From NCBI GenBank assembly GCA_049297675.1, contig JBAQUS010000010.1:6781-70780 (forward strand): a stretch of 64,000 bases of DNA, written 5' to 3'. Both the position numbers and the translations under genes were made by a program. Source of the DNA: Minisyncoccia bacterium. GTDB lineage: Bacteria > Patescibacteriota > Minisyncoccia > Phycocordibacterales > DATDWN01. The notes beneath the pieces were generated by a model. That model saw only the letters and a list, made by a program, of their open reading frames with translations. It did not search any database and was not told the origin of the DNA. Below, one piece after another: positions 27,566 through 43,207 of the stretch. Every line of letters begins with the position of its first letter. Position 1 is the first letter of the stretch.

Positions 27566-27569
27566 AATT

Positions 27570-28259
27570 ATGAAAGTAGTAATATTGGCTGCAGGTGAAG
27601 GTGTTCGTATGAGACCACTTACTCTTACAACACCAAAACCACTTATTATAGTATCTGGTAAACCAATACTCGATCATATTTTTGTGGCACTGCCTTTGGA
27701 AATTAATGAAGTTATAATAGTAGTTGGACATCTCGGCAACAAAATAAAAGATTATTGTGGTGATAGTTTTTACAACAGAAGAATAAAGTATGTTGAGGGT
27801 TCAAAGGAGGGTAACGCTATGAGTTTTTTGTCAGCAAAACCATTTTTAGAAAATGAAGAACGTTTTTTGCTAGTACAAGGTGATGAATTGCCATATAAAA
27901 AAGACGTAGAAAGATGCTTGAGTCATAAATCAAGCAGTCTTTGTTGGGAGATAAATGACCCATGGAATCATGGAGTTATAACTTTAAAAGATGGAATGAT
28001 AAATGATATTATTGAGAAGCCAAAAAATCCACTATCAAATTTAATAAGTAATGGTGTAATGGTTATTACGAGTAAAATTTTTGATTGTATTCCAAAAAGA
28101 GAAAACAATGGTGAGTATTATTTTTCATCCATGTTTAATCAGTACATTAAAAAAGAAAATGTTGTAGCGGTTTCAACGATCTATGGTACAGTGGGTTTTT
28201 CAAGTCCAGAAGATATAAAAAGAAACGAGGAGGTTTTAAAATCTCGACCAAAAATCTAA
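27570..28259 (+). CDS. Sugar-1-phosphate nucleotidyltransferase (HddC-like heptose-1-P guanylyltransferase candidate)
   Basis: The NTP_transferase N-terminus is MKVVILAAGEGVRMRPLTLTTPKPLIIVSGKPILDHI. The HddC assignment is inferred from the pathway context (adjacent HddA-like kinase, GmhA, GmhB). Confidence 0.55.
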   Translation: MKVVILAAGEGVRMRPLTLTTPKPLIIVSGKPILDHIFVALPLEINEVIIVVGHLGNKIKDYCGDSFYNRRIKYVEGSKEGNAMSFLSAKPFLENEERFLLVQGDELPYKKDVERCLSHKSSSLCWEINDPWNHGVITLKDGMINDIIEKPKNPLSNLISNGVMVITSKIFDCIPKRENNGEYYFSSMFNQYIKKENVVAVSTIYGTVGFSSPEDIKRNEEVLKSRPKI

Positions 28260-28287
28260 GTTGAAAAAATGGCTGACATGACCTATA

Positions 28288-29307
28288 GTGAGTGGTATGA
28301 TAATTAGTCGTACCCCATTTCGAATACCATTAGGAGGAGGATCAACAGATTTACCAGCATATTACGAGAAGTATGGAGGTTTTATTTTTGCTGTAACTAT
28401 TAATTTGTATATGTATATAGGGGCAAATAGGCCACCGGTTGATGATTTAATAAGAGTAAAATATCATGAAAGTGAGACGGTTTCAGATGTGAATGATTTA
28501 AGGCACGGATTAGCGAAGTATGCCTTAAAAAGAACCAGGTTGAACAAAATGATTGAGATATCTTCAAAGGCTGATGTTCCCGATGGTACTGGACTAGGAA
28601 GTTCGGCAAGTTATCTTGTGGGACTTCTTAATGTTCTCCATACATTGAATGGTCGTAATATTTCGAGACGTCAAATTGCTGAAGAGGCATTTCAGATTGC
28701 CACAAAGGATTTAGATCTACCAGATGGTAAACAGGATTTTTATGTTACGTCCTTCGGAAATTTTACTGTTTTAGATATTGATAAAAATGGAAACGTAAAA
28801 GTGTCCAACGCAAAAGTTAGCAGTGATACACAGAAGAAATTTGAGGATCAAACCCTTTTATTTTATACCGGGGTAAGAAGATCCAGCACTGACATTTTGA
28901 AAGAGCAACAAAAAAAGATTAAATCAAATGATTTAAAATCTATAAAACTAAAACATGAGATAAAAAAAATTGGTCAGCAGATACATAAAGTATTTGAAGA
29001 GGGAGACCTTGATACTTTTGGTAAATTAATGCACAAACATTGGGAACTTAAGAAAAAGATGTCAGATAAAATGTCCAATGATATTTTTGATGAAATCTAT
29101 GAGAAAGTTAGGAAGCAAGGGGTAGTAGGAGGGAAAATATTGGGTGCAGGTGGCGGGGGATTTTTTCTTGTTTATTGTAGAAAGGGAACTCAAAATGCAA
29201 TTAAAAAGATATTTAGTAACTACAAAATGAGGCATATTCCTATTAGAGTTGACTCGGGAGGAACACAAATAATCGTTAATCACCCACGTAATTCAAATAC
29301 AATATAA
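28288..29307 (+). CDS. GHMP kinase, D-glycero-alpha-D-manno-heptose-7-phosphate kinase (HddA)-like
   Basis: The N-terminal IISRTPFRIPLGGGSTDLP resembles HddA. The GHMP ATP-binding motif is PDGTGLGSSASYLVGLL. Confidence 0.65.
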   Translation: MSGMIISRTPFRIPLGGGSTDLPAYYEKYGGFIFAVTINLYMYIGANRPPVDDLIRVKYHESETVSDVNDLRHGLAKYALKRTRLNKMIEISSKADVPDGTGLGSSASYLVGLLNVLHTLNGRNISRRQIAEEAFQIATKDLDLPDGKQDFYVTSFGNFTVLDIDKNGNVKVSNAKVSSDTQKKFEDQTLLFYTGVRRSSTDILKEQQKKIKSNDLKSIKLKHEIKKIGQQIHKVFEEGDLDTFGKLMHKHWELKKKMSDKMSNDIFDEIYEKVRKQGVVGGKILGAGGGGFFLVYCRKGTQNAIKKIFSNYKMRHIPIRVDSGGTQIIVNHPRNSNTI

Positions 29308-30134
29308 TGTCTAGGAAAAAAGTTATAGTAATAGTTGGTGCCACGGGTGTACTTGGCTCTTCTATTGCTGAAAAATTTACTGACTCTGATGCTGAATTAG
29401 TATTAACTTGTAGCACAAGGAACAAAATTAAATTGCTAAAAGGTTCAATGACCGAAGTTGTTGATGTTACATCGGACAAGTCGGTTAAAAATTTCTTCAA
29501 AAAAGTACAAATAAGATACAAAAAAATTGACGTTTTGATTACAGCCTTTGGGGTTTATGGAAGCATCGGTCTTTTAAGTGATATTGACCCAAGGAGATGG
29601 GAAAATGCAATCAATGTAAATTTATTTGGGAATGTTAAATGTTTTTATTATGCAATTCCACTTCTTAAAAAATCTAAAAATGGGAAAATAATAACTTTTG
29701 CTGGTGGTGGAGAGGGGGCGAAGCCAAACTTCACTTCTTATGTCAGTAGTAAAATGGCTGTAGTAAGATTGATCGAAACTTTGGGTGAAGAATTAAAGGA
29801 TAATAACATTGATGTGAACGCCATCTCTCCGGGTCCTATAAAATCTAGATTCACTGAAGATATAATAAAAGCCGGTGCTAAGCTTGCTGGTAAAAAATCA
29901 TTTGATGAGGCAAAGGAGCAAATGAGTGGTAGAAAAGAAACAGTAGATCCAAAATTAATTGCGAATCTTGTAGAATTTCTTTCATCATCTGATTCAGATG
30001 GCATAACTGGTAAAAACATTAGCGCAGTTCATGATCCATGGAGGGATTTTTCAAATCATAAAAAAGATATAATAAACTCCAAGGTTTATACATTTCATAG
30101 AATTAAGCCTAAGGAAGAAGGTTATGACTGGTAA
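29307..30134 (+). CDS. Short-chain dehydrogenase/reductase (SDR) family oxidoreductase
   Basis: The Rossmann motif is VIVIVGATGVLGSSIAEKF. The SDR catalytic region YVSSKMAV has the YxxxK signature. Confidence 0.75.
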   Translation: MSRKKVIVIVGATGVLGSSIAEKFTDSDAELVLTCSTRNKIKLLKGSMTEVVDVTSDKSVKNFFKKVQIRYKKIDVLITAFGVYGSIGLLSDIDPRRWENAINVNLFGNVKCFYYAIPLLKKSKNGKIITFAGGGEGAKPNFTSYVSSKMAVVRLIETLGEELKDNNIDVNAISPGPIKSRFTEDIIKAGAKLAGKKSFDEAKEQMSGRKETVDPKLIANLVEFLSSSDSDGITGKNISAVHDPWRDFSNHKKDIINSKVYTFHRIKPKEEGYDW

Positions 30135-31131
30135 AAATATTAAAATTGGAATCATTGGAGCTGGGAAAATGGGTTCGCGTTGGGCAGATATTGTAAGCAA
30201 AAATAAGGATACTAATCTAACAGTTATTATTGATACAAATAATGCTTCAGGATTAAATTTATCAAAAAAATATTCTGCTAAATACTACCAAGACCTCAAG
30301 TCAATTTTAGAATCTGATATTCCAGATGCTTTTTTAGTTATAACACCACACAGGTTTTTATCAGATTATGCAAGAGAAATTTTGACCATGAATAAGCACG
30401 TTTTTATCGAAAAACCAGGTGCATCATCAGCTAAGGACATGAAAAGCATTATCGGTTTAGCAAAAAGAAAGAAGAGGATTTTAATGGTAGGATTTAATTA
30501 CCGATTTTTTGATGCTATTAGTCGTGCTTATAATATTGTTAAAAAAGGCGAGATAGGTAAATTGTTATCTATACGTATCAAACACGGTCACGCTGGTCGT
30601 CCTGGTTATGAAAATGAATGGAGAATGAACAAAAAAATGGCTGGTGGTGGGGTCTTGATGGATCAAGGGGTCCATCTTATTGACCTGGCACTTTGGTTTT
30701 TTGGTAGTCAAAAAAAAGGCAAGATCAAATTTGTTTCAGGAGTAATGAGTAATTTATTTTTAAATACAAAGGTAGAAGATAATGCCATGGTGGTTCTGAA
30801 ACATTCCAACGGAAGCATTGCTTCGATTTCTGTTGGAGTTAGTGAGTGGCAACCTGTTTTCCAATTAGAGGCCATATGTACTTTAGGTTTGTGTAGGGTA
30901 GATGGTGTAGGTAGGAAATATGGAGGTAGGGAGTTGTTGACAGTGACGAAACATGACAGTAAAGCTGAACTCAGTTCCAAGGAATTTGAGTGTAATTCAG
31001 ACCCTGATAATTCTTTAAGATATGAATTAGCAGAATTTATCAATGCTATTAAGGGTCATAGAAAACCAGTTCCTGGCGGGGATGATGCCCTAAACACCCT
31101 TTTAGTTATTGGTAAAATTTACTCTAAATAA
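30124..31131 (+). CDS. Gfo/Idh/MocA-family NAD(P)-dependent oxidoreductase
   Basis: Contains IKIGIIGAGKMGSRWADIV and the EKP motif FIEKPGASS. Confidence 0.75.
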   Translation: MTGKNIKIGIIGAGKMGSRWADIVSKNKDTNLTVIIDTNNASGLNLSKKYSAKYYQDLKSILESDIPDAFLVITPHRFLSDYAREILTMNKHVFIEKPGASSAKDMKSIIGLAKRKKRILMVGFNYRFFDAISRAYNIVKKGEIGKLLSIRIKHGHAGRPGYENEWRMNKKMAGGGVLMDQGVHLIDLALWFFGSQKKGKIKFVSGVMSNLFLNTKVEDNAMVVLKHSNGSIASISVGVSEWQPVFQLEAICTLGLCRVDGVGRKYGGRELLTVTKHDSKAELSSKEFECNSDPDNSLRYELAEFINAIKGHRKPVPGGDDALNTLLVIGKIYSK

Positions 31132-31132
31132 A

Positions 31133-32260
31133 ATGAGAAAAAAATTTAAAAAAATACTTGTTACGGGGGGGGCTGGCTTCATAGGTTCACATGTAGTAGA
31201 TGAGCTAGTCAAATCTGGCTACAAGGTAAGAATATTAGATTCACTTTGTTATCCCTCTCATGATGGCAAATTGCCGTTTTGGATAAACAAAAAGGCTGAG
31301 TTTATACATGGAGATGTAACTAAAAAGAAAGACTGGGTTAGAGCTTTAGATGGAGTTGAAGCCATAATACATCTTGCCGCCTACATGGATTATCATAAAA
31401 ATTTTAGTGGATATGTTAGAACAAACATAGAAAGTATCGCTTTAATGTTTGAGGTTATACTTGAAAACAATATTAAAATAAAAAAAATTATTTCAGCATC
31501 CTCACAATCTGTATATGGTGAGGGTAAGTACAAATGTATCAAACACGGAGAGTTTTATGGGGTGAAAAGAAGTGAGGATCAACTCAGAAAACACATTTGG
31601 GAACAACTTTGTCCTCGATGTGATAGAGTTTCACTTCCTGTTATAGAAGAAGAAGAAGATGATAATTTAAATCCTCTTTCTCCTTACGGTATTTCCAAAT
31701 TATCAAGTGAATTAATGCTAAAAAATTTAGGGCATGAGTATAATGTACCCGTGGTTCTTTTGAGATTTAGTATAGTACTTGGTGCTAGACAATCATATCG
31801 TCACTTTTATTCCGGAGCCTTAAGATCATTTACAGTAAATGTATTGAGTAATGACCCTATCCAACTAAATGAGGATGGTAAACAAATAAGGGATTTTGTC
31901 CATGTTCGCGATGTTGCCTTGGTCCATATCTTTGTTCTCGAGGATAACAGAACTAATTTTGAAAGTTATAATGTTGGTAGAGGTAAATCTACATCAGTTC
32001 TTGAGTTGGCAAAAATGGTTGCCAAGGTTGGCATGGTTGATTTTAATCCATTATTAAATAATCGTTTTAGAGTAGGAAGCACACGTCATTCCATGATGAG
32101 CATTGCAAAATTAAGAAAATTAGGTTGGAAACCAAAGTACTCAATAGAAGATGCTGTCAAAGAATATTATAAATGGATAAGGCAATTTAAAGATCTTGAT
32201 AAGATATTGACTAGTAACGAATTACAAATGAAAAATAGTGGGATTATAAAAAATTACTAA
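31133..32260 (+). CDS. NAD-dependent epimerase/dehydratase (extended SDR) acting on a nucleotide sugar
   Basis: The motif ILVTGGAGFIGSHVVDELVKSGYKV is present and the YxxxK region reads YGISKLSSE. The start was moved to the ATG at 31133, just after the upstream stop. Confidence 0.75.
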   Translation: MRKKFKKILVTGGAGFIGSHVVDELVKSGYKVRILDSLCYPSHDGKLPFWINKKAEFIHGDVTKKKDWVRALDGVEAIIHLAAYMDYHKNFSGYVRTNIESIALMFEVILENNIKIKKIISASSQSVYGEGKYKCIKHGEFYGVKRSEDQLRKHIWEQLCPRCDRVSLPVIEEEEDDNLNPLSPYGISKLSSELMLKNLGHEYNVPVVLLRFSIVLGARQSYRHFYSGALRSFTVNVLSNDPIQLNEDGKQIRDFVHVRDVALVHIFVLEDNRTNFESYNVGRGKSTSVLELAKMVAKVGMVDFNPLLNNRFRVGSTRHSMMSIAKLRKLGWKPKYSIEDAVKEYYKWIRQFKDLDKILTSNELQMKNSGIIKNY

Positions 32261-32261
32261 T

Positions 32262-33539
32262 ATGAAAATTTCTGTAATAGGATTGTGGCATTTAGGAAAC
32301 GTAATATCAGCGTCAATGGCAGAATTAGGACATGATGTTGTAGGTATTGATTTCGATGACAAAAAAATAGATGAGTTAAGAAGAAATAAAATTCCTGTCA
32401 ATGAACAAGGTTTATCACAAATGCTTAATAAGCATCAAAGTAAGGGTAGACTGAAATTTGATTCAAATCCTGAAGCAGTAAAAAATTCTAATGTTTTAAT
32501 TATTGCATATGATACTCCTGTATCTAAAAATGATGAAGTTGATACTACAGTTATTTTTCAAGCAATGAAGAAGATTAGGCCATTTTTGAATAAAAATGTA
32601 CTTGTAGTTGTAATGAGCCAAGTTCCAGTTGGCACCACAGCTTTATTGTCAAAAGGTTTTAAAAAAATAATTTATTGTCCAGAAAATTTGCAACTCGGAA
32701 AAGCTATCGATTGTTTTTTAAATCCAGATAGAATCATTATTGGTTCAAATGATAAGGATTCTACCGAGATGTTCATTAAAGTAATAAAAGACATAAAAGG
32801 ACCAAGAATTTTTATGAGTATTGCCTCTGCTGAAATGAGTAAGCACGCCTTAAATGCATTTTTAGCCACATCCCTTTCCTTTACTTATAACATTTCAGAT
32901 TTATGTGAAAGGGTTAACGCGGATGTAATAGATGTTATGAAGGCGTTAAAAAGTGATAATCGTGTAGGAAATTTAGCCTATTTGGACACGAGTTTAGGTT
33001 TTTCCGGAGGAACTTTAATGAGAGATTTAAGGATTTTAGAATCTTTTGGCAAAAAATACAAAACACATATTCCAGTTGTCAGAGCAGTATTAAAAACAAA
33101 TGAACTAAGAAGAAAGTTAGTTGTAAAAAAGCTTGAGAAAGTATTATCACAACTTTCTACTAAAAAAATTACTATATATGGAGTTACTTATAAGCCTGGG
33201 ACCTCAACATTAAGACAATCAATTTCCATTGAACTAATTAGTGTATTAAAAAAATATAGAATAAGTGTTTCAGCATTTGATCCAAGTGCCGATAAAAATG
33301 AATTTTATAAGCAAACTGGTTTTCATTTATCAGACGATCCATATTTAGCTGCAGAAGGAAGTCATTGTCTACTTTTTATTACGCCATGCCCTGAATTCCT
33401 CAATCTAAACATCAATAATCTAAAGTCTAAAATGAAAAAACCTTACATATTTTTTGATACAAGAGGTATGTTTAAAAACATAGAATTAAATATTTCTAAA
33501 ACTGGATTAAATTATATGAGACTTGGCAAGGGTTTTTAA
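32262..33539 (+). CDS. Nucleotide-sugar dehydrogenase (UDP-glucose/GDP-mannose dehydrogenase family)
   Basis: The N-terminal MKISVIGLWHLGNVISASMAELGHDVVGIDFDDKKIDEL matches the family. The C-terminal YGVTYKPGTSTLRQSISIELI is the UDPG_MGDP_dh_C region. Confidence 0.75.
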   Translation: MKISVIGLWHLGNVISASMAELGHDVVGIDFDDKKIDELRRNKIPVNEQGLSQMLNKHQSKGRLKFDSNPEAVKNSNVLIIAYDTPVSKNDEVDTTVIFQAMKKIRPFLNKNVLVVVMSQVPVGTTALLSKGFKKIIYCPENLQLGKAIDCFLNPDRIIIGSNDKDSTEMFIKVIKDIKGPRIFMSIASAEMSKHALNAFLATSLSFTYNISDLCERVNADVIDVMKALKSDNRVGNLAYLDTSLGFSGGTLMRDLRILESFGKKYKTHIPVVRAVLKTNELRRKLVVKKLEKVLSQLSTKKITIYGVTYKPGTSTLRQSISIELISVLKKYRISVSAFDPSADKNEFYKQTGFHLSDDPYLAAEGSHCLLFITPCPEFLNLNINNLKSKMKKPYIFFDTRGMFKNIELNISKTGLNYMRLGKGF

Positions 33540-33561
33540 AGTGCTATGATGTCTAAAATAT

Positions 33562-34230
33562 ATGAATAATAATAAAAAAATTAAATCATTTTCAGATAAT
33601 TTTTTGAAGGATATTGAGGATGTTGTAATTCGTACATCCAGAGAGTATTCTTCCAAGTTAGATAATGCAATAGAGCTTCTTTTCAATGCGTGGAAAAATG
33701 ATAACTGGGTTTATATTATGGGGAATGGTGGTTCTGCATCTACTGCCACCCATATTGCTGCCGACTTGGCAAAAACTATTTGTTCTGGTCCTGAAGATCG
33801 AGGTATGAAGGCAATGGCTCTTGTAGATAATATTCCCTTGGTTAGTGCTTTAACTAACGATTGGGGTTGGGAGAATATATATGTTAACCAATTAACAACT
33901 TTTTATGAGAAGGATGGTGTAGGCGTCGGTATAAGTGTTCATGGTGGAAGTGGAAAAGATATCTCTGGTAAGTGGTCTCAAAATCTATTAAAAGGTCTGC
34001 AGTATATTAAAGATAGAGGGGGGAAAACAATTGGACTGTCTGGTTTTGATGGAGGTCCAATGAAAAAATTAGTTGATGTGAGTATAGTTGTTTCAGCAGA
34101 TTCAACTCCTATCGTTGAAGGCATGCACGTTGTACTGCATCATTTGATTGTTTTTGGTCTTAAAGAAAAAATTAATGAATACAAAAAAACTATTAATCCG
34201 GCAAAAAAGAAAAGCAGTATTTCTAGATAG
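33562..34230 (+). CDS. gmhA: Sedoheptulose-7-phosphate isomerase (SIS domain, GmhA-like)
   Basis: The SIS core GNGGSASTATHIAADLAKT and the downstream DxxxxSxSG-type region are present. Confidence 0.7.
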   Translation: MNNNKKIKSFSDNFLKDIEDVVIRTSREYSSKLDNAIELLFNAWKNDNWVYIMGNGGSASTATHIAADLAKTICSGPEDRGMKAMALVDNIPLVSALTNDWGWENIYVNQLTTFYEKDGVGVGISVHGGSGKDISGKWSQNLLKGLQYIKDRGGKTIGLSGFDGGPMKKLVDVSIVVSADSTPIVEGMHVVLHHLIVFGLKEKINEYKKTINPAKKKSSISR

Positions 34231-34750
34231 AGATGGAGTGATAAATGAACTAGTTTTTAGAGGGGAAGATTTTTTGGTTGCAAACGAAAAAGTGAGTCAC
34301 ACTGCTCCATTTTTTTTACATGAACTAAAAATCAAGAATGAAATAATTGACTCGATTATTAAAATAAAGGATATGGGTTTTTTGTGTATCTTAGTGACTA
34401 ACCAACCGGATGTGTATTATGGGGTAATGCAAGATGAAGAGTATCATAAAATTATGTCTGAAATTTCTAAATTGCCTCTGGACGATATTTTTGTTTGTAG
34501 ACATGGTAGAGACGAAAATTGTCAATGCAAAAAACCAAAAACAGGCATGTTCATAAAAGCTTCAAAGAAGTGGGATATTGATTTTGAAAAATCATTTATG
34601 GTTGGAGATAGTGATACAGACATTTTAGCAGGTAGGCATGTTGGATGTACTACCGTTTTAGTCAAAGATTGTGAACTAGAAAATGTCGATTATCATCATC
34701 GAATTAGCCATTTAAGTGAACTTTCGTCAATTCTTGTTAAGTACTCCTAG
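34175..34750 (+). CDS. gmhB: D,D-heptose-1,7-bisphosphate phosphatase (HAD family, GmhB-like)
   Basis: The HAD motif I is AVFLDRDGVINE. The GmhB Zn-binding signature CQCKKPKTGM matches CxCRKPxPGM. The ORF track starts at 34148; the ATG at 34175 gives the typical short N-terminus. Either start overlaps gmhA. Confidence 0.7.
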   Translation: MNTKKLLIRQKRKAVFLDRDGVINELVFRGEDFLVANEKVSHTAPFFLHELKIKNEIIDSIIKIKDMGFLCILVTNQPDVYYGVMQDEEYHKIMSEISKLPLDDIFVCRHGRDENCQCKKPKTGMFIKASKKWDIDFEKSFMVGDSDTDILAGRHVGCTTVLVKDCELENVDYHHRISHLSELSSILVKYS

Positions 34751-34768
34751 ATACAGTAAAATTAATTC

Positions 34769-35503
34769 ATGAAAATATTTATAGACAGTGCGAATCTTGC
34801 TGATATAGAAGAGTCATTGAGAAGGGGTTTTGCTCATGGCATTACTACTAACCCGTCTTTATTAGCTAAGGAACCAAAAGGGTCATTTAATAGTCATGTA
34901 CTAAAAATAATAAAGTTAATAAAAAAATATAAGCCTGGTACGCATTTAAGTATAGAGGTTTTTTCAAAGAATCCTGAGGAAATATATAAACAAGCATGTG
35001 ATTTTGTTAAGCGTTTCAACTATTCTCATTTAAGCATAAAGGTTCAGGTTGGATGGGATGAACTTGAGGTTATAAAAAAATTATCTGATAAAAGAATTTC
35101 AGTTAACTGTACTGCATGTATGAATACAACACAGGCTGTCATGGCTGCAAAAGCTGGAGCAAAATACGTTAGTCTTTTTTGGGGTAGGATAAAGGACGGT
35201 GGTATAGACACTGCATTTGAAAAAGTTAGAAGTGAGATGATTGAGAAAAGTGTGATAGACAAAAACGACTTCAATCCTGCGTTTGTAGTAAAGTCAGTTA
35301 GGCAAATCTTGGATGATCAAAATATTAAGTCAGAGATTATTGTCGGAAGTATTCGTGGTGTAACGGATATTCGCGATGCGGCCTTATCAGGTGCTCATAT
35401 TGTGACTATACCACCAAAATTTTTCCCTCAGATGATGAATCATTTCAAAACTGATCAGGTAGTTGAGCAGTTTTTAAGTGATTTTGATCACTGGTTGTCC
35501 TGA
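34769..35503 (+). CDS. Transaldolase / fructose-6-phosphate aldolase family (TalC/FSA-like)
   Basis: MKIFIDSANLADIEE...GITTNPSLL and IKVQVGWDELEVIKKLSDKRISVNCTACMNTTQAVMAAKAGAKYVSLFWGRIKD match the FSA/TalC core. The Schiff-base Lys lies in IKV. Confidence 0.75.
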   Translation: MKIFIDSANLADIEESLRRGFAHGITTNPSLLAKEPKGSFNSHVLKIIKLIKKYKPGTHLSIEVFSKNPEEIYKQACDFVKRFNYSHLSIKVQVGWDELEVIKKLSDKRISVNCTACMNTTQAVMAAKAGAKYVSLFWGRIKDGGIDTAFEKVRSEMIEKSVIDKNDFNPAFVVKSVRQILDDQNIKSEIIVGSIRGVTDIRDAALSGAHIVTIPPKFFPQMMNHFKTDQVVEQFLSDFDHWLS

Positions 35504-35522
35504 TTGGTTTAAGTAAAATTTT

Positions 35523-37475
35523 GTGTTAACCATATTACTAACACTTCTATTCTTCATAGTTACCTTTTTCTTTGGAATAACCTTCTCTATTGTTGTTATA
35601 GATGAAAAAAGATGTTTTGCATTGTTGGGACTGAGTATAATTATTGGTATTAATAGTTACGTCTTTTTTTTGAATTTTCTTTCTTACTTTCTACCATTTT
35701 TTTACAGTTCTTGGCTTTCCTTGATCTCATTGTTACTTATCTCTTTATTTATATATTTACTTTATATAAAAGGTAATAGAGTAGGTAATTTGTTTGAAAA
35801 CACACTAGATAAAGGTCAATCTAAATTACTCTATATCGTTATATCAATTATTGTTATTATCTGTGGGGTTGCCACTTTCAGAACCAATGTCTTTGATCCA
35901 CTCCACATAGCTTTTGCTCATACAATAAGTGAAGGTAATTTTCCTATGGTAGATCCTACATCACCAGATCATCCATTTGCATATCATTATGGTTCTGACT
36001 TACTTACAGCAGGTATGTATAAAATAGCTGGGGGACCTCTTCTATGGTTAGCTTTTAATCTCCAGATAGTATTTTTTCTTTTTGGTATATTATTGATTCT
36101 ATTCACTATCGCATATGATTTCTCTAAAAATTTTTACAAAGCATTAATTTGTTCAGTTTTTTTCGTTTTTGTATCTGGTCTTCAATTTCTCAACCTTTTC
36201 TTAGAGGGTTTTCCAGTTTTATATCAAAAATTTTTTCTGAATACAGAAGTTGTCGCTCAATGGAAATTTGTGGCTTCTGCAGTTTTTCCCCCCTTGAACA
36301 CGAGTTATGTGTTTGGCATGCATAATCACTCACTAGCAATGGGGATGCCACTATTACTACTTGTTTTGTATCTATATTTTAAATTTCACCATAGTTTAGA
36401 TTATTCAAATAAAGGTAATCTTGTAGTAGCAGTTTTTTCCGGTTTGTTTTTTGGTCTTAGCGCCTTAAGTGTCGAAACTTACTTTGGAGTTTTTGCAATT
36501 GCCTTCATTCTTCTTTTCTTAAAACAAGCTGTAATTGACAAGAGATTAAATTTTTATATTATAGTCATATTGTTCGTTGGTTTTTTTACTGCTTTTTTAC
36601 AAGGTGGTGTTTTAACTCATATTTTTGATTCAAGTGATGGTAGTACTAAGTTAGTGTTTGTAAAGAGTCTACATGACTTGATAAACTGGAATTTATCAAT
36701 AAATCAGCCAGGTATAATCGACCCCAATAGCATAACTAGAGTATTCAGTCTTAACTTCATTATTCAATTTGGTTTGTCAATTTTTCTAATTATCCCAGCA
36801 CTTATACATTACAGAAAAAATGAAAAGATTTTGTTTCTGGGTGTTATAGGTCTTGGTGCTTTTTTTGCACCAGTATTGTTTCATTATACAGAAAGACCTT
36901 GGGAAATGACCAGATTTTTTACGTTGGCATTACCTTTTTTTGCGTATGTAGTTGGTATGTATTTTGTTGATTTGTATGATAAGGGATTTCCTAGATGGAT
37001 AATTTATCTTAGTTCCGTGTTTATTATAATAACAGGATTATTCTCCCAAGTAATGTTTATGTTGACGCCGTTAGATAATTTTGGTGCAATTAGTGTTCCA
37101 TTTGTGGGAGGGCTAATGGAGCCAACTCAGGCAAAAAAAGATTTATATGAGTGGATAGACAAAAATACTACAATCAACGACAGATTTTTTCCTTACAATA
37201 CGGATATCATGACGTATACTGGTAGATTTACACCCGGTTACTCTCTCATATCTTTCTCATCTAGAAATAAAGATTTTGAAAATTATAATTCTATTCTCTC
37301 TTCCTGCAGTCAACAGACTTTGGGTATACTCAAAATAACTCATATCGTAGTTGTTTCTCCAGAAATAGAGAAGTTTTTCAGTGATAGGTGCGATACAAAA
37401 TTATTTACTAAGTTGTATAATGATTTGGAAAATCATTATTATGTATACAAAATTAATATCAACCTTAAGAAATAA
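35523..37475 (+). CDS. Large polytopic membrane protein (>12 TM), candidate GT-C-like glycosyltransferase/polymerase
   Basis: 650 aa, highly hydrophobic, with a GTG start. Extracytoplasmic loops contain acidic and aromatic clusters (VDPTSPDHPFAYHYG). No firm family recognised. Confidence 0.45.
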   Translation: MLTILLTLLFFIVTFFFGITFSIVVIDEKRCFALLGLSIIIGINSYVFFLNFLSYFLPFFYSSWLSLISLLLISLFIYLLYIKGNRVGNLFENTLDKGQSKLLYIVISIIVIICGVATFRTNVFDPLHIAFAHTISEGNFPMVDPTSPDHPFAYHYGSDLLTAGMYKIAGGPLLWLAFNLQIVFFLFGILLILFTIAYDFSKNFYKALICSVFFVFVSGLQFLNLFLEGFPVLYQKFFLNTEVVAQWKFVASAVFPPLNTSYVFGMHNHSLAMGMPLLLLVLYLYFKFHHSLDYSNKGNLVVAVFSGLFFGLSALSVETYFGVFAIAFILLFLKQAVIDKRLNFYIIVILFVGFFTAFLQGGVLTHIFDSSDGSTKLVFVKSLHDLINWNLSINQPGIIDPNSITRVFSLNFIIQFGLSIFLIIPALIHYRKNEKILFLGVIGLGAFFAPVLFHYTERPWEMTRFFTLALPFFAYVVGMYFVDLYDKGFPRWIIYLSSVFIIITGLFSQVMFMLTPLDNFGAISVPFVGGLMEPTQAKKDLYEWIDKNTTINDRFFPYNTDIMTYTGRFTPGYSLISFSSRNKDFENYNSILSSCSQQTLGILKITHIVVVSPEIEKFFSDRCDTKLFTKLYNDLENHYYVYKININLKK

Positions 37476-39219
37476 CTACATAGCTTTTCTGTTTTCACTG
37501 TTAGTTGGTATTGTATATATTTTCCCACATGTTTATTTTATTTTGGATCAGGGAGAAAATTACAAAGGTATATACATATCTAGATCGTACGACGAAGACA
37601 CATACTACTCATCCATAAGGCAAATTTATGATGGAAAATCTGCCACCATGAATCCCTATCTACCTGAATATGAAGAAAAGACCATTGTTTCAGCTTATAA
37701 GTTTATTGAGAGTATAATAGGATATTTGGGGGTATTTTTCAATTTGAGCATATCCAGTCTAGCAATTTTATCTAAATTTATCTTTCCGACATTAATATTT
37801 TTGTCAGTATACTTCTTTATTCTTGTGCTTTTCCACGATAAATTAACGGCTATTTTCACAGCGTTTTTTGTGCTTCTCGGACAGGAATTAGCACCACTCA
37901 ATATTACATCTGCCATAGAAACATTCATGTTCCAGAGCCCATTTCATAGTTTTCTCCTATTCAATCGTCCCATAAATCCACAAGTAAGTATAATTTTCTT
38001 TTTCTTAGTTTTGTGTTTACTAGCTAAGCTTTGGAACAATACTCATTCAAAAAAATATGCAATTTTGAGTGGTATTATTGTTGGTTTTTTGTCATATATA
38101 TATTTTTATTATTGGAATTTCACTTTAATATTTCTTGGGTTAATTTTTCTGTACTCTATTTTTTTGAAGGAAAAGGAGTTATTGAAAAACATTTCAATTT
38201 CTATTATTGTAAGTTTAGCTGTAGCAATGCCATTTATAGTAAATACATTACTAGCACTCAAGACAGGAGCCATGAGTGTTAGTAAAAATTATATTCTTAC
38301 CCACAGATATATAAACGAAAAAGTTATCCTTCTTCCACTTATAGTGTTCATTGTTATTTATCTTTGGAATACAATAATTTCAAAAAAATTTAACATTAGT
38401 GTGGTGTTATCATTTATCAATGAAAAAAAATTTTTGTTTATATTCCTTCTGGTTGTCACAGGATTTCTTGCTACGAATCAACAGGTGATTCATGGTTATG
38501 AGATACAACAACATCACTATCATTTCATGACTAATATTTCAGTATTTATCATTACTATGTCAGTAATTTTTAGTACTTTTTTAAAGAGTCATATCAATAA
38601 ATACAAATTATTTATAGTTTCCTTAGTAATGTTTGTTATTTTCATCCATGCAATAAGTGTTCAGGCTTCATCATATAAGTACTGGGTGGATAAATTCGGA
38701 CATTTTCAGGATTATTCCCCAGTATTTGATTGGTTAAATAATAATTCAAAAGCTGATGACGTAGTTTATTCAAGCACAGAAATTTCCGAGATCATTCCTG
38801 TCTACACACATAATAGTGTTTACGGCTCTCTTCATGCAAGTGTTTATCCTGTGCCAACAGAAAGACTTGCTCACAATTATTTCACCTTAATGTATTTAAG
38901 AGGAATTTCAGGAAAGGAAGTTAAAACTTATCTATATGATGAAAAGTATAGAAACGAATTCGGTCATATGGTTTTTGAGGGACAATATTGGAGAAGTGTA
39001 TGCGGGTCATTTGGCTGTTTTCCGGACTCTGTATTGGATAGTTACATAAAAAATTATGAACTACTTGTCAAGGACTCGTTTGAAACTAATTTAAAAAAAT
39101 ATAAAATTGACTACATTTTATGGGATAGTGAATTAAACCCTGAATGGGAGATTGATAAATTCAATTTTGTTAAAGAAGTGTTTAGACACGAAAGTATTCA
39201 CTTATTTTCTGTCATATGA
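37441..39219 (+). CDS. Large polytopic membrane protein, candidate GT-C-like glycosyltransferase
   Basis: About 590 aa with many TM helices and a large C-terminal soluble domain. The ORF track starts at 37381 inside the upstream gene; the ATG at 37441 is the more plausible start. Confidence 0.45.
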   Translation: MYTKLISTLRNNYIAFLFSLLVGIVYIFPHVYFILDQGENYKGIYISRSYDEDTYYSSIRQIYDGKSATMNPYLPEYEEKTIVSAYKFIESIIGYLGVFFNLSISSLAILSKFIFPTLIFLSVYFFILVLFHDKLTAIFTAFFVLLGQELAPLNITSAIETFMFQSPFHSFLLFNRPINPQVSIIFFFLVLCLLAKLWNNTHSKKYAILSGIIVGFLSYIYFYYWNFTLIFLGLIFLYSIFLKEKELLKNISISIIVSLAVAMPFIVNTLLALKTGAMSVSKNYILTHRYINEKVILLPLIVFIVIYLWNTIISKKFNISVVLSFINEKKFLFIFLLVVTGFLATNQQVIHGYEIQQHHYHFMTNISVFIITMSVIFSTFLKSHINKYKLFIVSLVMFVIFIHAISVQASSYKYWVDKFGHFQDYSPVFDWLNNNSKADDVVYSSTEISEIIPVYTHNSVYGSLHASVYPVPTERLAHNYFTLMYLRGISGKEVKTYLYDEKYRNEFGHMVFEGQYWRSVCGSFGCFPDSVLDSYIKNYELLVKDSFETNLKKYKIDYILWDSELNPEWEIDKFNFVKEVFRHESIHLFSVI

Positions 39220-39281
39220 TCCGATTCTATCAGCTTCGTTGTATACAGTGATTATTATTGATAGAAAAATTTCTTCCATTT

Positions 39282-40232
39282 TTATTCTTTATGCCAATTT
39301 GAGAGTGATTCAATCAAGGCTTCCTCAACAGTTCGGATTTTTACTCCTGTTTTAAGGAGTTTAGACACGTCAAGAATACAATTTGATCTTGGAGTTTTTG
39401 CTATTTTAGAGTAGAATTCTTTATCGTTTTTCCAAAAAATAAGTTTTTTCTTTGGTCTCAGTGTTTTTTCAACCATTTCCACTACTTTTTTGGTCGTAAT
39501 AAATCCAGGGTTAGCTATGTTATATATTCCATATGGAGCACCTATTTTCCACAAATCTAAAGAAGCTTTGACAAAATCTCCGAGATGGGAAAGTGTGTTG
39601 GTGTTGTTGTAAACCTTGCTATATCTTTGAATTTTAGAGAGATAGTTACGATTATTATCGAATTCATCAAACGGCACACGAAGTCTTAGTATATATACTT
39701 TTCCTGAATTTTTTAAAAGAATTTCTTCAGCCAGTGCTTTTGTACCACTATAAAAACTACATGGTCCATTTCTAAAAGAAAAATTTGGGGTGTCCTTTTC
39801 GTTAAATCCTCGGATTTTTTCTGGACTGTTTTCAATAATAGATCTTATTTCTGGTTTATTAAGATTTTTTTCAATAACAGTCTTTCCGTTCCTTGATATT
39901 TTTGTCCCGTTGTATATACAGCCAGACGATATGTGCGCCCATGGTATGTTTTCCGTCTGACAAACCTCCGCAATAGTAGTGGGAAGGACTACGTTTCCAA
40001 GAAGCGTATCTGCCCAGTTCAGTTCGCAAGCGTCGATATTTGGTTTTCCCGTATATCCAGCAGCATTAATGACAAAATCAGGTTTTCTTTTTTTGAGTAA
40101 TTTTAGAAGTTTACTGTAGTTTGTGTAGTCTAATGCTTTTCGTGTTGGGGCAAAAAAACGAATCTTTCTTGCCCTGAGTTCTTTTTTGAAAGCTTCTCCA
40201 ACATACCCTGATCCGCCTAATAATATAATCAT
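39282..40232 (-). CDS. RmlD-like NAD(P)-dependent sugar-nucleotide reductase (dTDP-4-dehydrorhamnose reductase family)
   Basis: MIILLGGSGYVGEAFKKEL...FVINAAGYTGKPNIDACE is the RmlD substrate-binding-domain pattern. Confidence 0.65.
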   Translation of the reverse strand: MIILLGGSGYVGEAFKKELRARKIRFFAPTRKALDYTNYSKLLKLLKKRKPDFVINAAGYTGKPNIDACELNWADTLLGNVVLPTTIAEVCQTENIPWAHISSGCIYNGTKISRNGKTVIEKNLNKPEIRSIIENSPEKIRGFNEKDTPNFSFRNGPCSFYSGTKALAEEILLKNSGKVYILRLRVPFDEFDNNRNYLSKIQRYSKVYNNTNTLSHLGDFVKASLDLWKIGAPYGIYNIANPGFITTKKVVEMVEKTLRPKKKLIFWKNDKEFYSKIAKTPRSNCILDVSKLLKTGVKIRTVEEALIESLSNWHKE

Positions 40233-41155
40233 TTTTTATATATTTTAAGGATTGTTTTCACAATAGATGTTGAATCAAGCCCAGCTTTATTCAGTAGAAA
40301 ATTACGACTTCCAACATCTTTTATAAAATGATCAGGTAATCCAAATATTTTGAAAAGTTTAGGTCTCATTGATGATTGCATTAAAAGCTCGGAGACTGCT
40401 CCACCAAATCCTCCTTGCATTCCATTTTCTTCTATCGTAAAAATTGCCTCAGCTTTTTTATTTTTATACAGTATGAGTTTTTTATCAAGCGGTTTTACCG
40501 ATGGCATACTAATAACAGAAATACTCTTTTTTAGTTTTTTCTCCAAAATATTTCCTGCTTCAACAACCACATCCAAAATGTTACCAGTTGATAAAAGTAT
40601 AACATCTTCACCTTTCTTTACCTCATATCCCTTGCCTATTTCAAATTTCCAACCTGGTTTCTCGAAATGTGTGCTGGGACTTTTGCCAAGACGCATATAT
40701 GTTGGTCCTTTGGTCTCAAAAGCTACTCTAGTTGCGCCTTCCGCTTCCCATGCATATGCAGGATTCATGACCTTCATATTTGGTAAGGAGCGCATTATGG
40801 CCAAATCCTCCACGGTATGGTGAGTTATGCCGTGAGTTGCATAGTTATATCCTCCACCAGCCCCAAACAGTTTAACGTCAAGGTTGTGATAGCAAATGTC
40901 TGTCCTAATTTGTTCAAAACAACGTAGAGTTAAAAATGAAGCTATGGAGTAGGCGATAACCGTCTTACCAGTCAAGGCTAGACCACAGGCAACGCCAATC
41001 ATATTTGATTCTGCAACGCCCACATTTATAAATCTATCTGGAAAAGCATCTCTTATTGGTTCAAGAGCATTAAACCCCAAGTCACCAGTTAGAAAGAATA
41101 TATTTTTATTCTTTTTCATTTCAACCAAAGCTTGTTTTACAAAACTATTTCGCAT
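40229..41155 (-). CDS. Transketolase, C-terminal (pyrimidine-binding) subunit
   Basis: FPDRFINVGVAESNMIGVACGLALTGK is the transketolase pyrimidine-binding domain. It overlaps the upstream N-terminal subunit by 11 nt. Confidence 0.85.
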   Translation of the reverse strand: MRNSFVKQALVEMKKNKNIFFLTGDLGFNALEPIRDAFPDRFINVGVAESNMIGVACGLALTGKTVIAYSIASFLTLRCFEQIRTDICYHNLDVKLFGAGGGYNYATHGITHHTVEDLAIMRSLPNMKVMNPAYAWEAEGATRVAFETKGPTYMRLGKSPSTHFEKPGWKFEIGKGYEVKKGEDVILLSTGNILDVVVEAGNILEKKLKKSISVISMPSVKPLDKKLILYKNKKAEAIFTIEENGMQGGFGGAVSELLMQSSMRPKLFKIFGLPDHFIKDVGSRNFLLNKAGLDSTSIVKTILKIYKK

Positions 41156-41981
41156 GTTTTTTCCGGGTCATTTTTTGACTCTCTATGTATGTTTCCTTGT
41201 CAGGAACAAAGTAGTGAGCAAGCAAAGTGTTTTCTATTTTTGGAACTCCCTTACCGCTCACAGTATCTGCTAGTACTATTGCCGGACGATCGGTGTATAT
41301 CGCTTCTGTAATAATTTGCTCTAGTTCTTTTATATCATGACCTGATGATCTAAAGACATCCCATCCAAAAGCCGACCACTTTTTCACTAAATCCATAGTG
41401 TGAACTTTTTTCGTCTCGCCAAATCCTTGGAATTTATTTTCGTCTATTATAGCCACTACATTATTTAGTTTATGAGTTGATGTAAACATAGCCGCTTCCC
41501 ATATTGATCCTTCGTTGCATTCTCCGTCTCCCATGAGTACAAATACTTTTCGATCAGGATGGGTTTCTCTTATAGATAGAGCAACACCAGCTCCAATCGA
41601 TAAACCGTGTCCAAGTGAACCGGTTGAGACCTCAATTCCCTTGGCAGCAAATGAGCAAGGATGAAGATGAAAAATGCCATTATCAACTCTATATTTTTTT
41701 AGATCAGATTTTGGGAAAAAACCGCGTAAAGCTAAGGCCGAGTATAGTGCCGCTCCACCATGACCTTTGCTCAAAATAAACCTATCTCGATTTGGGTGAT
41801 CTGGTTTTTTGGGGTCTATGTGAAGAATACGAAAATAAAGTACTGCTAATATGTCACTAATACAAAGTGCTGAGCCACTTTCTCCAGATTGGCTATTATA
41901 CGACATCTCAATAATCAGTCGTTTCATTTCTGCACTTATCGCTGTAACATCTTTATGTGTATAGAGCTTATTATGAGCCAT
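41145..41981 (-). CDS. Transketolase, N-terminal (thiamine-diphosphate-binding) subunit
   Basis: Carries the TPP-binding region GHGGAALYSALALRGFF, GSLGHGLSIGAGVALS, MGDGECNEGSIWEAAMF. Confidence 0.85.
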   Translation of the reverse strand: MAHNKLYTHKDVTAISAEMKRLIIEMSYNSQSGESGSALCISDILAVLYFRILHIDPKKPDHPNRDRFILSKGHGGAALYSALALRGFFPKSDLKKYRVDNGIFHLHPCSFAAKGIEVSTGSLGHGLSIGAGVALSIRETHPDRKVFVLMGDGECNEGSIWEAAMFTSTHKLNNVVAIIDENKFQGFGETKKVHTMDLVKKWSAFGWDVFRSSGHDIKELEQIITEAIYTDRPAIVLADTVSGKGVPKIENTLLAHYFVPDKETYIESQKMTRKKHAK

Positions 41982-42089
41982 ATGTAGTCACAAAGTATTG
42001 TCTATTTTAGGACTGATGTCAATTCTATTCTTCTGGTCAAAAGAAAAGTTTTGAGATAGTATAGGTCATAATAAATTGCTAAGCCTAAA

Positions 42090-43052: not shown

Positions 43053-43063
43053 AAGATTGCAAA

Positions 43064-43199: not shown

Positions 43200-43207
43200 A
43201 CTATCGA

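Follow-up and report, generated by a model that had tools for sequence, protein, structure and literature searches.

What does a transaldolase do among genes that resemble those for heptose activation? The question is raised by a 64-kb stretch of a metagenome-assembled genome (MAG) contig from a member of the Minisyncoccia (Patescibacteria, also called the candidate phyla radiation, CPR; NCBI GCA_049298995.1), the whole of which is referred to here as the window. A sequence-only reading of this stretch had interpreted it as a guanosine diphosphate (GDP)-D,D-heptose pathway coupled to its own supply of sedoheptulose 7-phosphate (S7P), the supply being provided by a transaldolase and a split transketolase. 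The types of activation enzyme and the link to the transaldolase stand; the GDP label, strict membership in the heptose enzyme families, the part given to the transketolase and the S7P supply are not supported. The region is best explained as two adjacent, separable sugar modules, A (26636-35503) and B (35523-44152), in a surface-glycan island. The transaldolase is an integral member of the module A cassette, to which its coupling is real, conserved and clade-specific, whereas the split transketolase belongs to the separate module and not to the cassette. Judging from sequence, module A would be a transaldolase-initiated pathway to a nucleotide-activated higher-carbon sugar, probably an octose, a reading to which we give roughly even odds (about 0.5).

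Gene Content of Module A

Module A is one tightly packed, co-directional operon. Its genes, as matched in a Pfam scan of 49 window open reading frames (ORFs), all of at least 110 aa, are the following.

26636-27565, plus strand: glycosyltransferase family 2 (GT2) protein of the ArnC/PgfS/GtrB type, heading the operon (Pfam Glycos_transf_2; two C-terminal transmembrane (TM) helices)
27570-28259, plus strand: NTP-transferase, a sugar-1-phosphate nucleotidyltransferase (Pfam NTP_transferase, E 5e-21)
28297-29307, plus strand: GHMP kinase, an HddA/WcbL-like anomeric sugar-phosphate kinase (Pfam N and C domains)
29307-30134, plus strand: classical short-chain dehydrogenase/reductase (SDR), FabG-like ketoreductase (Pfam adh_short, adh_short_C2; YxxxK at residue 145)
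30124-31131, plus strand: Gfo/Idh/MocA oxidoreductase (Pfam GFO_IDH_MocA and C-terminal domains; family-level counterpart of LmbZ/CcbZ)
31133-32260, plus strand: NAD-dependent epimerase-type extended SDR (Pfam Epimerase, E 1e-47, in two stretches; family-level counterpart of LmbM/CcbM)
32262-33539, plus strand: nucleotide-sugar dehydrogenase (TIGR03026, 303.6 bits, passing the cutoff of 189.8; family-level counterpart of LmbL/CcbL)
33562-34230, plus strand: SIS isomerase, a GmhA-like ketose-/aldose-phosphate isomerase of a distinct subfamily (Pfam SIS)
34175-34750, plus strand: HAD-IIIA phosphatase of the GmhB/HisB-N type (Pfam HAD-IIIA; Zn loop)
34769-35503, plus strand: short-type transaldolase of a cassette-specific clade (Pfam TAL_FSA, E 5e-39)

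The genes named in the sequence-only reading are all recovered by Pfam at their places, including the split transketolase on the minus strand (40229-41155 and 41145-41981), and the presence of four activation enzymes of the GmhA, HddA, GmhB and NTP-transferase type is borne out by Pfam, NCBIfam and PDB comparisons. Four tailoring genes that lie between the kinase and the isomerase (the SDR, the Gfo/Idh/MocA protein, the epimerase and the nucleotide-sugar dehydrogenase) had gone unnamed. The close packing continues beyond the module, as all genes from 26636 to 39219 are co-directional and either overlap or are separated by at most 37 nt, and the transketolase operon on the minus strand is convergent to this gene run. 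The gene order of the cassette is the same in three independent assemblies (GCA_049298995.1 and two Logan runs), which indicates that assembly error does not explain the adjacency of its genes.

Linkage of the Transaldolase to the Cassette

The transaldolase might be an ordinary pentose-phosphate enzyme that lies in the island by chance. Its generic annotation ("transaldolase family protein"), the more than 100 patescibacterial homologues that share 60-73% identity with it, and a related locus (L004) that has no cassette nearby are in keeping with this idea. The neighborhoods of its relatives argue against it. A scan with the window transaldolase, limited to one genome per species, yielded 80 loci, in which six-frame ORFs were searched with the window proteins (phmmer). 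Relatives scoring at least 230 bits (48-73% identity) occur in Peregrinibacteria, Magasanikbacteria, Giovannonibacteria, Saccharibacteria, Paceibacteria, Deltaproteobacteria, Nitrospirota and Phycisphaerae, and three weaker members of the cassette clade were found in one Acidobacteriales MAG and two Dehalococcoidia MAGs. In a neighbor-joining tree the cassette-linked transaldolases form one clade that is cleanly split from the rest and spans CPR, Deltaproteobacteria, Nitrospirota, Phycisphaerae, Acidobacteria and Dehalococcoidia. The only exceptions to cassette linkage within the clade are L004 and L029, the latter at a contig edge; all others lie directly downstream of an SIS gene, mostly also of a HAD gene, with a kinase gene nearby. 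Among clade loci with at least 5 kb of upstream sequence, the SIS gene is present in 26/26, the HAD gene in 24/26 and the GHMP kinase gene in 23/26, whereas ordinary transaldolase loci have none of the three (0/40), and several of them adjoin a canonical transketolase. With SIS adjacency at 26/26 versus 0/40, the association is far beyond chance. The reciprocal search agrees: in a kinase-anchored metagenome scan, 18 of the 19 loci flanked on each side by at least 6 kb carry a transaldolase-family ORF, and the sole exception (L096) lacks both the transaldolase and the SIS gene. The tie between cassette and transaldolase that had been proposed from the position of the latter beside gmhB is thus upheld, and a chance residence of a housekeeping enzyme, which these synteny statistics effectively refute, is scarcely credible.

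In more distant cassettes, with kinases 43-50% identical to that of the window, the transaldolase belongs to the TIGR02134 "staphylococcal" subfamily (311 bits, cutoff 282), so the same slot is filled by two transaldolase lineages. The window enzyme itself scores 140 bits against TIGR00875, whose cutoff is 246. Its catalytic residues D6, N28, E63, K91, N113, T115, F137 and R140 are invariant in all 80 loci, and the Schiff-base lysine is accompanied by the aspartate, glutamate and phenylalanine of a transaldolase. An aldolase of the fructose-6-phosphate aldolase (FSA) type, using free dihydroxyacetone as the donor, is ruled out by Glu63 and Phe137, which are transaldolase-type, against the Gln/Tyr of fructose-6-phosphate aldolase. 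The window transaldolase also has a 22-aa insertion, which is specific to CPR and not to the cassette; it was dropped as a functional marker, as cassette transaldolases outside CPR are without it.

A tblastn search of PLSDB revealed the full cassette in two bacteria that have been cultured. One is Lawsonia intracellularis, whose plasmid 3 (NC_008014.1, ~14.5-22.9 kb; L173) carries, in this order, genes for the SIS isomerase, HAD-IIIA phosphatase, transaldolase, nucleotide sugar dehydrogenase, SDR, Gfo/Idh/MocA protein, a "galactokinase" and the nucleotidyltransferase; "galactokinase" is how the Lawsonia kinase is annotated, and its transaldolase is annotated to the pentose-phosphate shunt. In Rhizobium jaguaris CCGE525, the 2.58-Mb plasmid/chromid pRCCGE525c (~967.5-986.5 kb; L172) carries GT2, epimerase, dehydrogenase, SDR, Gfo/Idh/MocA, kinase, NTP-transferase, SIS, HAD and transaldolase genes. 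Two further candidates were rejected. A transaldolase homologue on a plasmid of Streptomyces sp. 3211, considered as an actinomycete cassette, has unrelated neighbors, and kinase homologues on Rhizobium leguminosarum plasmids belong to a related set that lacks the transaldolase. One of the latter, on pRle248b (L174), comprises a kinase, a 650-aa HAD-IIIA fusion, an SIS protein, a GT2 and an FAD oxidoreductase, with no transaldolase, and is a different variant of the activation logic. A literature search turned up no heptose or octose cassette with a linked transaldolase, either in Patescibacteria or in polysaccharide loci.

In many CPR loci (L006, L008, L009, L019, L020 and others), the transaldolase is followed downstream by a membrane protein resembling U612 of module B and a second set of NTP-transferase, GT2 and Gfo/Idh/MocA genes, to which some loci add an FAD oxidase and a dehydrogenase. 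This second set looks like a further sugar module.

Activation Enzymes of the Cassette

How closely do the activation enzymes resemble those of heptose synthesis? None of them attains the cutoff of its heptose equivalog in any variant of the cassette. The nucleotidyltransferase, which had been taken for HddC, scores 52 bits against the HddC equivalog (NF049965, cutoff 300), and its top NCBIfam matches, the archaeal GlmU N-domain (Arch_glmU), AglF and long-RmlA (rmlA_long) models, all lie above HddC, leaving the label "GDP" unsupported. Its matches in the PDB (MurU, RmlA, ST0452, GMPP and HddC) all fall between 1e-13 and 1e-16, and neither the NCBIfam nor the PDB comparison discriminates among the nucleotides it might use. 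The designation "GDP-D,D-heptose" is over-specific.

The kinase has HddA (NF049969) as its best NCBIfam match, at 153 bits against a cutoff of 600, and strict HddA membership does not hold. Its N-terminus does align with HddA/WcbL structures, as the sequence-only reading had it, and its PDB neighbors are the heptose kinases 3k85, 4n3o and 4usk (WcbL), at E 1e-37 to 1e-39. The enzyme matches fucokinase (1e-16), galactokinase (1e-11) and mevalonate kinase (1e-9) far less well, which places it with heptose kinases and not with galactokinases or mevalonate kinases.

The phosphatase passes TIGR01656 and TIGR01662 and stays below the cutoff of the GmhB-specific model PRK08942 (103 bits against 178), so that of its proposed identity as GmhB the general profile is sustained and the specific one is not. 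The core motifs DRDG, TNQP, KKP and GDSDTD are present, together with a Zn loop of the form C-x-H-x5-C-x-C, as in GmhB and HisB-N; its sequence, C-R-H-x5-C-Q-C-KKPKTGM, agrees with the Zn signature that had been anticipated. The enzyme is predicted to remove the terminal phosphate.

The isomerase scores 97.3 bits against the GmhA equivalog (TIGR00441, cutoff 209.45), SIS enzymes of the variant cassettes score 51-58 bits, and the best PDB match is GmhA (1tk9, 5e-19). The family of the window type comprises just 40 clusters at E≤1e-30 in a set of 1.84 billion representatives. All of the ~65 cassette SIS sequences, of two sequence types and from all phyla, carry E65D, R69T/I/L, T120V and Q172E, in an E. 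coli GmhA numbering that reproduces the published residue numbers. In all of them the phosphate loop is also 6-9 aa longer than that of GmhA. H61 and H180 are kept; E65, R69, Q172 and the short S-T-S-G-x-S loop are not. E65 and Q172 of GmhA are catalytic or metal positions, and strict GmhA membership, as claimed before, fails on the score, on these two substitutions and on the loop.

The long loop goes with the transaldolase. A canonical GmhA encoded elsewhere in L163 keeps the E. coli pattern and the short loop, and SIS copies without an adjacent transaldolase (those of L169 and of a second set in L028) likewise have a short loop. In L028, a Saccharibacteria MAG, two kinase/SIS/HAD sets lie side by side, and only the set with the long-loop SIS adjoins the transaldolase; the short-loop set may be a true heptose pathway. 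The isomerase signature is an indication, drawn from the residue pattern, of a substrate other than S7P. The E65D, R69 loss and Q172E changes together with the long loop, and the two transaldolase subfamilies, provide signatures that separate this cassette from true heptose clusters, with which current genome annotation merges it.

Comparison with Heptose and Lincosamide Pathways

GDP-heptose clusters use GmhA, HddA, GmhB and HddC, starting from S7P. Module A parallels them in its order of chemistry and in its four protein families; HddA and WcbL are the nearest solved relatives of its kinase, and its phosphatase has the GmhB Zn loop. The differences are that its enzymes stay below the equivalog scores, that its isomerase is altered and that a transaldolase is an obligatory member. 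In the GDP-heptose clusters of 23 Campylobacter jejuni serotypes, four enzymes lead from S7P, and the paper describing them never mentions a transaldolase.

To our knowledge, the lincosamide pathway is the only characterized one in which a transaldolase is embedded among heptose-type activation enzymes. In this pathway, the transaldolase LmbR uses fructose 6-phosphate (F6P) or S7P as a C3 donor and ribose 5-phosphate as the acceptor to yield octulose 8-phosphate (PMC5854111). LmbN then isomerizes, LmbP phosphorylates, LmbK dephosphorylates and LmbO produces GDP-octose, which is tailored by LmbM, LmbL and LmbZ/CcbZ. The enzyme families of the window recur in the lincosamide clusters of Streptomyces lincolnensis and S. 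caelestis, with proteins of very similar size. The transaldolase, SIS isomerase, GHMP kinase, HAD phosphatase and nucleotidyltransferase all lie within 27570-35503, and the tailoring set is matched at the family level by the TIGR03026 dehydrogenase, the epimerase and the Gfo/Idh/MocA protein. The published gene table for celesticetin (Ccb) gives families and sizes (PMC4351081 S1), which pair off one for one with those of the window as follows.

Transaldolase: Ccb 222 aa; window 244 aa, including the 22-aa insertion
Isomerase: Ccb 202 aa; window 222 aa
Kinase: Ccb 323 aa; window 336 aa
Phosphatase: Ccb 185 aa; window 191 aa
NTP-transferase: Ccb 232 aa (guanylyltransferase); window 229 aa
Nucleotide-sugar dehydrogenase: Ccb 436 aa; window 425 aa
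Epimerase: Ccb 325 aa; window 375 aa
Oxidoreductase: Ccb ~330 aa; window 335 aa

The closest homologue of CcbL is a "nucleotide sugar dehydrogenase" and CcbZ is a C8 oxidoreductase, and the closest non-lincosamide homologues of the Ccb proteins come from Acidobacteria and Sorangium (PMC4351081). That these coincide with phyla in which the cassette was found is suggestive only. LmbZ, worded in its source as an "oxidoreductase/putative dehydrogenase", is presumably a member of the Gfo/Idh/MocA family. Wang and colleagues are said to have shown in 2020 that LmbL and CcbZ catalyze a 6,8-dehydration and that LmbS aminates the resulting ketone. The settings of the two systems differ: the window cassette sits in a surface-glycan island with a polyprenyl-phosphate GT2 and GT-C proteins, in a patescibacterium with cassette relatives in Rhizobium, Lawsonia and soil phyla, whereas the lincosamide genes sit in antibiotic clusters of Streptomyces.

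Among the tailoring enzymes of module A, the SDR is co-conserved with the Gfo/Idh/MocA gene in most cassettes, including those of Lawsonia and Rhizobium. The epimerase scores 150 bits against the GalE model, below its cutoff, and has SSQ/YGISK motifs. An insertion of ~45 aa with a C..H..C-P-R-C pattern splits its Pfam Epimerase match and is, by its cysteine pattern, possibly a small Zn-binding element.

A Proposed Route to a Higher-Carbon Sugar

What, then, would module A make? The enzyme families and their conserved linkage are observed, and from them we infer every substrate and reaction step. As a committed first step, the transaldolase would move a dihydroxyacetone unit from F6P or S7P to an aldose phosphate, most likely ribose 5-phosphate, giving octulose 8-phosphate as LmbR does. 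The GmhA-like isomerase would convert this ketose phosphate to an aldose phosphate, the HddA-like kinase would phosphorylate C1, the GmhB-like phosphatase would take off the terminal phosphate, and the nucleotidyltransferase would produce a nucleoside diphosphate (NDP)-sugar. The epimerase, nucleotide-sugar dehydrogenase, Gfo/Idh/MocA protein and SDR could then tailor it; by analogy with LmbM, LmbL and LmbZ, and with a ketoreductase replacing the aminotransferase, the product could be a deoxy-octose. Finally, the ArnC-like GT2 would load the sugar on polyprenyl phosphate, and a GT-C enzyme would transfer it outside the membrane. The lincosamide precedent, the spread of the cassette, the altered isomerase and the lack of a transaldolase in heptose clusters together favor the transaldolase as the committed first step, with octulose phosphate as its probable product.

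The closest competing explanation is that module A yields NDP-D-glycero-D-manno-heptose or a derivative, the transaldolase making S7P from F6P and erythrose 4-phosphate (E4P) and so sparing the cell its reliance on a reduced pentose-phosphate pathway. The closest characterized relatives of the kinase, isomerase and phosphatase are indeed heptose enzymes, the transaldolase active site is fully canonical, most carriers in the scan are Patescibacteria with minimal metabolism, and the changes in the isomerase could have arisen by drift within the lineage around a metal site (H, D, E, H). Several observations speak against this explanation. By textbook biochemistry, a transketolase alone gives S7P and is also needed for E4P, which leaves a transaldolase with little to add as a supply enzyme. 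The cassette transaldolase is kept in Rhizobium, Acidobacteria, Deltaproteobacteria and Nitrospirota; Rhizobium, Acidobacteria and Deltaproteobacteria make S7P anyway, and Rhizobium and the soil phyla have a complete central metabolism. One and the same slot is held by two different transaldolase subfamilies, characterized GDP-heptose clusters do without a transaldolase, every equivalog cutoff is missed, and the long isomerase loop is found precisely in the transaldolase-linked copies. We therefore consider a heptose product unlikely, though a serious contender. S7P supply as the role of the transaldolase, as first suggested, is likewise disfavored by the presence of the cassette in Rhizobium, Acidobacteria and Deltaproteobacteria, by the heptose clusters that lack the enzyme and by the lincosamide transaldolase, which builds octulose 8-phosphate.

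A product of another length or type would keep the transaldolase as the committed step and change the acceptor, a hexose 6-phosphate leading to a nonose or a deoxypentose phosphate to a deoxy-octose. Transaldolases accept varied aldose phosphates (PMC5854111), and all that the remodeled SIS loop reveals is a substrate other than S7P. Nucleoside salvage gives CPR bacteria both pentose and deoxypentose phosphates. We know of no precedent for such products, the kinase/phosphatase logic being familiar to us for C7 and C8 only, and we regard them as a long shot.

Other points weigh against the octose proposal. The transaldolase keeps every canonical catalytic residue, and the ordinary reaction of F6P with E4P fits it; carbon number (C7 versus C8) is not readable from sequence. 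The metabolism of Patescibacteria is reduced, so an S7P-supplying role may be possible in this organism. One member of the transaldolase clade, L004, has no cassette within 10 kb, and the locus counts include a few near-duplicate contigs. The lincosamide likeness is one of family, length and architecture, the Lmb and Ccb proteins being compared by description. The C6 aminotransferase LmbS/CcbS has no counterpart in the window, which has an extra SDR, and no DegT/aminotransferase domain was found by Pfam in any of the 49 scanned ORFs. Lastly, the GT-C proteins of the window group with module B, so that export of the module A sugar is assigned by analogy with other loci.

On balance, the system is best seen as a heptose/octose-type activation pathway, in a form new to surface glycans, that includes an obligatory transaldolase and probably follows an octose route. 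We know of no linear aldo-octoses in bacterial surface glycans. If the octulose phosphate step is real, 8-carbon aldoses would not be limited to lincosamide antibiotics; they would be cell-envelope building blocks in many uncultured and at least two cultured bacteria, and the cassette would point to an evolutionary source of the lincosamine pathway. The question is directly testable in Rhizobium jaguaris CCGE525 and Lawsonia intracellularis.

Module B and Its Split Transketolase-Like Enzyme

Does the split transketolase take part in module A? The genes assigned to module B are the following.

35523-37475, plus strand: U650, a polytopic membrane protein with at least 11 TM segments by hydropathy and a C-terminal soluble domain; assigned to module B by synteny
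37441-39219, plus strand: U612, a glycosyltransferase with a predicted GT-C fold (AlphaFold2 (AF2) model and Foldseek); assigned to module B by synteny
39282-40232, minus strand: RmlD-like NDP-4-keto-sugar reductase (Pfam RmlD_sub_bind, E 5e-25; TIGR01214, 66 bits, below cutoff)
40229-41155, minus strand: C-terminal subunit (Pyr and C domains) of the split transketolase-like enzyme, with a remodeled acceptor site (PDB 6yaj, 1e-52)
41145-41981, minus strand: N-terminal subunit (PP domain) of the split transketolase-like enzyme (Pfam Transketolase_N; PDB 6yak, 3e-59)
42090-43052, plus strand: second polyprenyl-phosphate-type GT2 (GT2b), PgfS-like (Pfam GT2; PgfS model, 231.5 bits, below cutoff)
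43208-44152, minus strand: extended SDR of the dehydratase/decarboxylase type (SSE...YAVGK; Pfam Epimerase, GDP_Man_Dehyd)

The RmlD-like gene is the last of the transketolase-like operon, its start overlapping the preceding stop codon, and GT2b, which has two C-terminal TM segments, is divergent from that operon. The extended SDR scores 137 bits against a LegB-like model and 130 bits against dTDP-glucose dehydratase, both below cutoff; it would generate a keto-sugar.

The transketolase-like enzyme has the cofactor site of its family. Equivalents of the thiamine diphosphate (ThDP) and metal ligands H66, H100, D155, N185 and H261 are kept in 120/120 closest homologues, and the C-terminal half has GVAESN, with the equivalent of E411. 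The substrate site is different. His26, His461 and Asp469, which bind substrate in E. coli transketolase, are all replaced. In the N-terminal half, SGESG stands in place of SGHPG (His26 to Glu), with Glu in 108/120 closest homologues. In the C-terminal half, GGGYNYATHGITHH replaces THAG..GEDGASHQ, with THAG becoming GGG (H461G) and GEDGASHQ becoming THGITHH (D469H). The four other CPR loci for which DNA was available (L088, L089, L090 and L171) all have these C-terminal changes, and the D469 position is H or Q in 5/5 CPR loci, whereas transketolases beside housekeeping transaldolases keep the canonical SGHPG and GEDGPTHQ. The best solved relative of both halves, the split transketolase of Carboxydothermus hydrogenoformans (6yak/6yaj), shares the conserved ThDP and metal residues and keeps SGHPG and THAG..GEDGASHQ, which the window enzyme does not.

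The genomic company of the enzyme also sets it apart from module A. No transketolase was found near the cassette in any other transaldolase- or kinase-anchored locus, and the adjacency is not conserved outside the window's own lineage. In 5/5 other CPR genomes, the transketolase-like pair is co-operonic with a dehydratase-type or classical SDR and has a polyprenyl-phosphate-type GT2 adjacent or nearby; an NTP-transferase is present in two of these loci, a YfhO or PMT_2 protein in four and a TylF methyltransferase in one, and SIS, HAD and transaldolase genes in none of the five. In L088 and L090, the transketolase-like genes come directly after a homologue of the module B SDR. In L088 and L089, the neighbors include homologues of GT2b (561 and 368 bits, respectively), U612 (645 and 483) and U650 (387 and 391), identifying 35523-44152 of the window as one module.

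These findings bear on the idea that transaldolase and split transketolase together were recruited into the glycan cluster as a dedicated precursor supply. The two gene families do lie within 7 kb of each other in the window, in three independent assemblies. Against this stand the lack of a transketolase homologue near the cassette in any other locus anchored on the transaldolase or the kinase, the H26E, H461G and D469H replacements in an enzyme whose relatives beside housekeeping transaldolases remain canonical, the occurrence of the pair in NDP-sugar operons in 5/5 other CPR genomes without SIS, HAD or transaldolase, and its convergent transcription relative to module A. Such a combined supply is very improbable, and module B is not an S7P supply; the transketolase, to which that role had been given, has altered substrate residues and is absent from other cassettes. 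Where metabolic reconstructions of Patescibacteria count both this transaldolase and the altered split "transketolase" as pentose-phosphate enzymes, they may overstate that pathway.

A different activity can be suggested by analogy. Split-gene transketolases have been proposed to pass a hydroxyacetyl unit on to keto-sugars in miharamycin/amipurimycin biosynthesis, an activity never demonstrated in vitro, and ThDP enzymes such as YerE branch NDP-4-keto-sugars (PMC12247030). The miharamycin/amipurimycin enzymes (13 Streptomyces sequences) are likewise of two subunits and lie in sugar-tailoring operons by keto-sugar-forming oxidoreductases. They sit in actinomycete antibiotic clusters, whereas the window-type enzymes, to which they are likened by description, sit in CPR surface-glycan loci with GT2 and GT-C proteins and carry the H26E, H461G and D469H signature. 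By this likeness, module B most likely adds a two-carbon branch to an NDP-keto-sugar, with the RmlD-like reductase following, and the split transketolase-like subfamily (H26E, H461G, D469H/Q) may serve to add C2 branches to keto-sugars of CPR surface glycans.

The proposals for the two modules can be put together, tentatively and at somewhat less than even odds. Module A would be a widespread and hitherto unrecognized straight-chain NDP-octose pathway (possibly 8-deoxy) for surface glycosylation, evolutionarily related to the lincosamide GDP-octose route and present in Patescibacteria, soil and groundwater phyla, R. jaguaris and the pig pathogen L. intracellularis, and the split transketolase-like subfamily would add two-carbon branches to NDP-keto-sugars.

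Polyprenyl-Phosphate Loading and GT-C Proteins

How might the finished sugars leave the cytoplasm? The GT2 at the head of module A scores 185.7 bits against the ArnC model and 140.7 bits against PgfS (NCBIfam), both below cutoff; in CPR loci, the cassette keeps a GT2 gene at its head. This GT2 would load the finished sugar onto polyprenyl phosphate. U650 has no Pfam or NCBIfam match and is probably a GT-C-type transferase. U612 has no Pfam match, and its AF2 model is of good predicted quality (predicted local distance difference test, pLDDT, 86.4; predicted template modeling score, pTM, 0.87). All 18 significant Foldseek matches of this model in the PDB (E≤0.001) are GT-C enzymes, among them STT3/PglB (3e-7 to 8e-6), DPY19 and AftA, with ArnT and Pmt4 at weaker E-values and a probability of 1.0. 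The predicted structure is thus that of a GT-C membrane fold. A more distant relative of U612 is encoded directly after the transaldolase in many other CPR loci. Four U612 homologues from CPR (P0243, P0244, P0246 and P0248; 805-836 aa) have a fused N-terminal GT2 domain, uniting the synthase and the user of a lipid-linked sugar in one polypeptide.

For both sugars, the likely fate is transfer from the NDP-sugar to polyprenyl phosphate and from there, by an extracytoplasmic GT-C enzyme, to an acceptor. The three-component systems ArnC/ArnT, GtrB/GtrV, PgfS with its GT-C protein, and CsbB/YfhO show the same pairing of a GT2 bearing C-terminal TM helices with a GT-C protein. Unlike those systems, the GT-C proteins of the window match no Pfam family, and no dedicated flippase was found adjoining them.

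The Surrounding Island

The 64 kb are mostly a single glycan-biosynthesis island, which also holds many GT4 and GT2 transferases, a PMT_2 protein, a Wzx-like flippase, a Wzy_C/TPR protein and methyltransferases. No ribose-5-phosphate isomerase or ribulose-phosphate epimerase gene was seen among the scanned window ORFs. Scans of the window for tRNA genes and Rfam families gave no matches, and a promoter/terminator scan gave counts no better than those of shuffled sequence. Genes of a mobile or defence type, for a TrwB/VirD4-like coupling protein, an IS200-like Y1 transposase and an AbiEii toxin, occur within the island (1838-3661, 8787-9449 and 23380-24093). The local GC content is 0.40-0.43 at 24-26 kb and 44-46 kb, compared with ~0.33 elsewhere in the window. 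Paralogous Gly_rich_2 (PF21722) proteins are encoded at 24231-25712 and 52750-54213, on either side of the sugar modules, and these two proteins could be targets of the glycosylation machinery that are secreted or lie at the cell surface.

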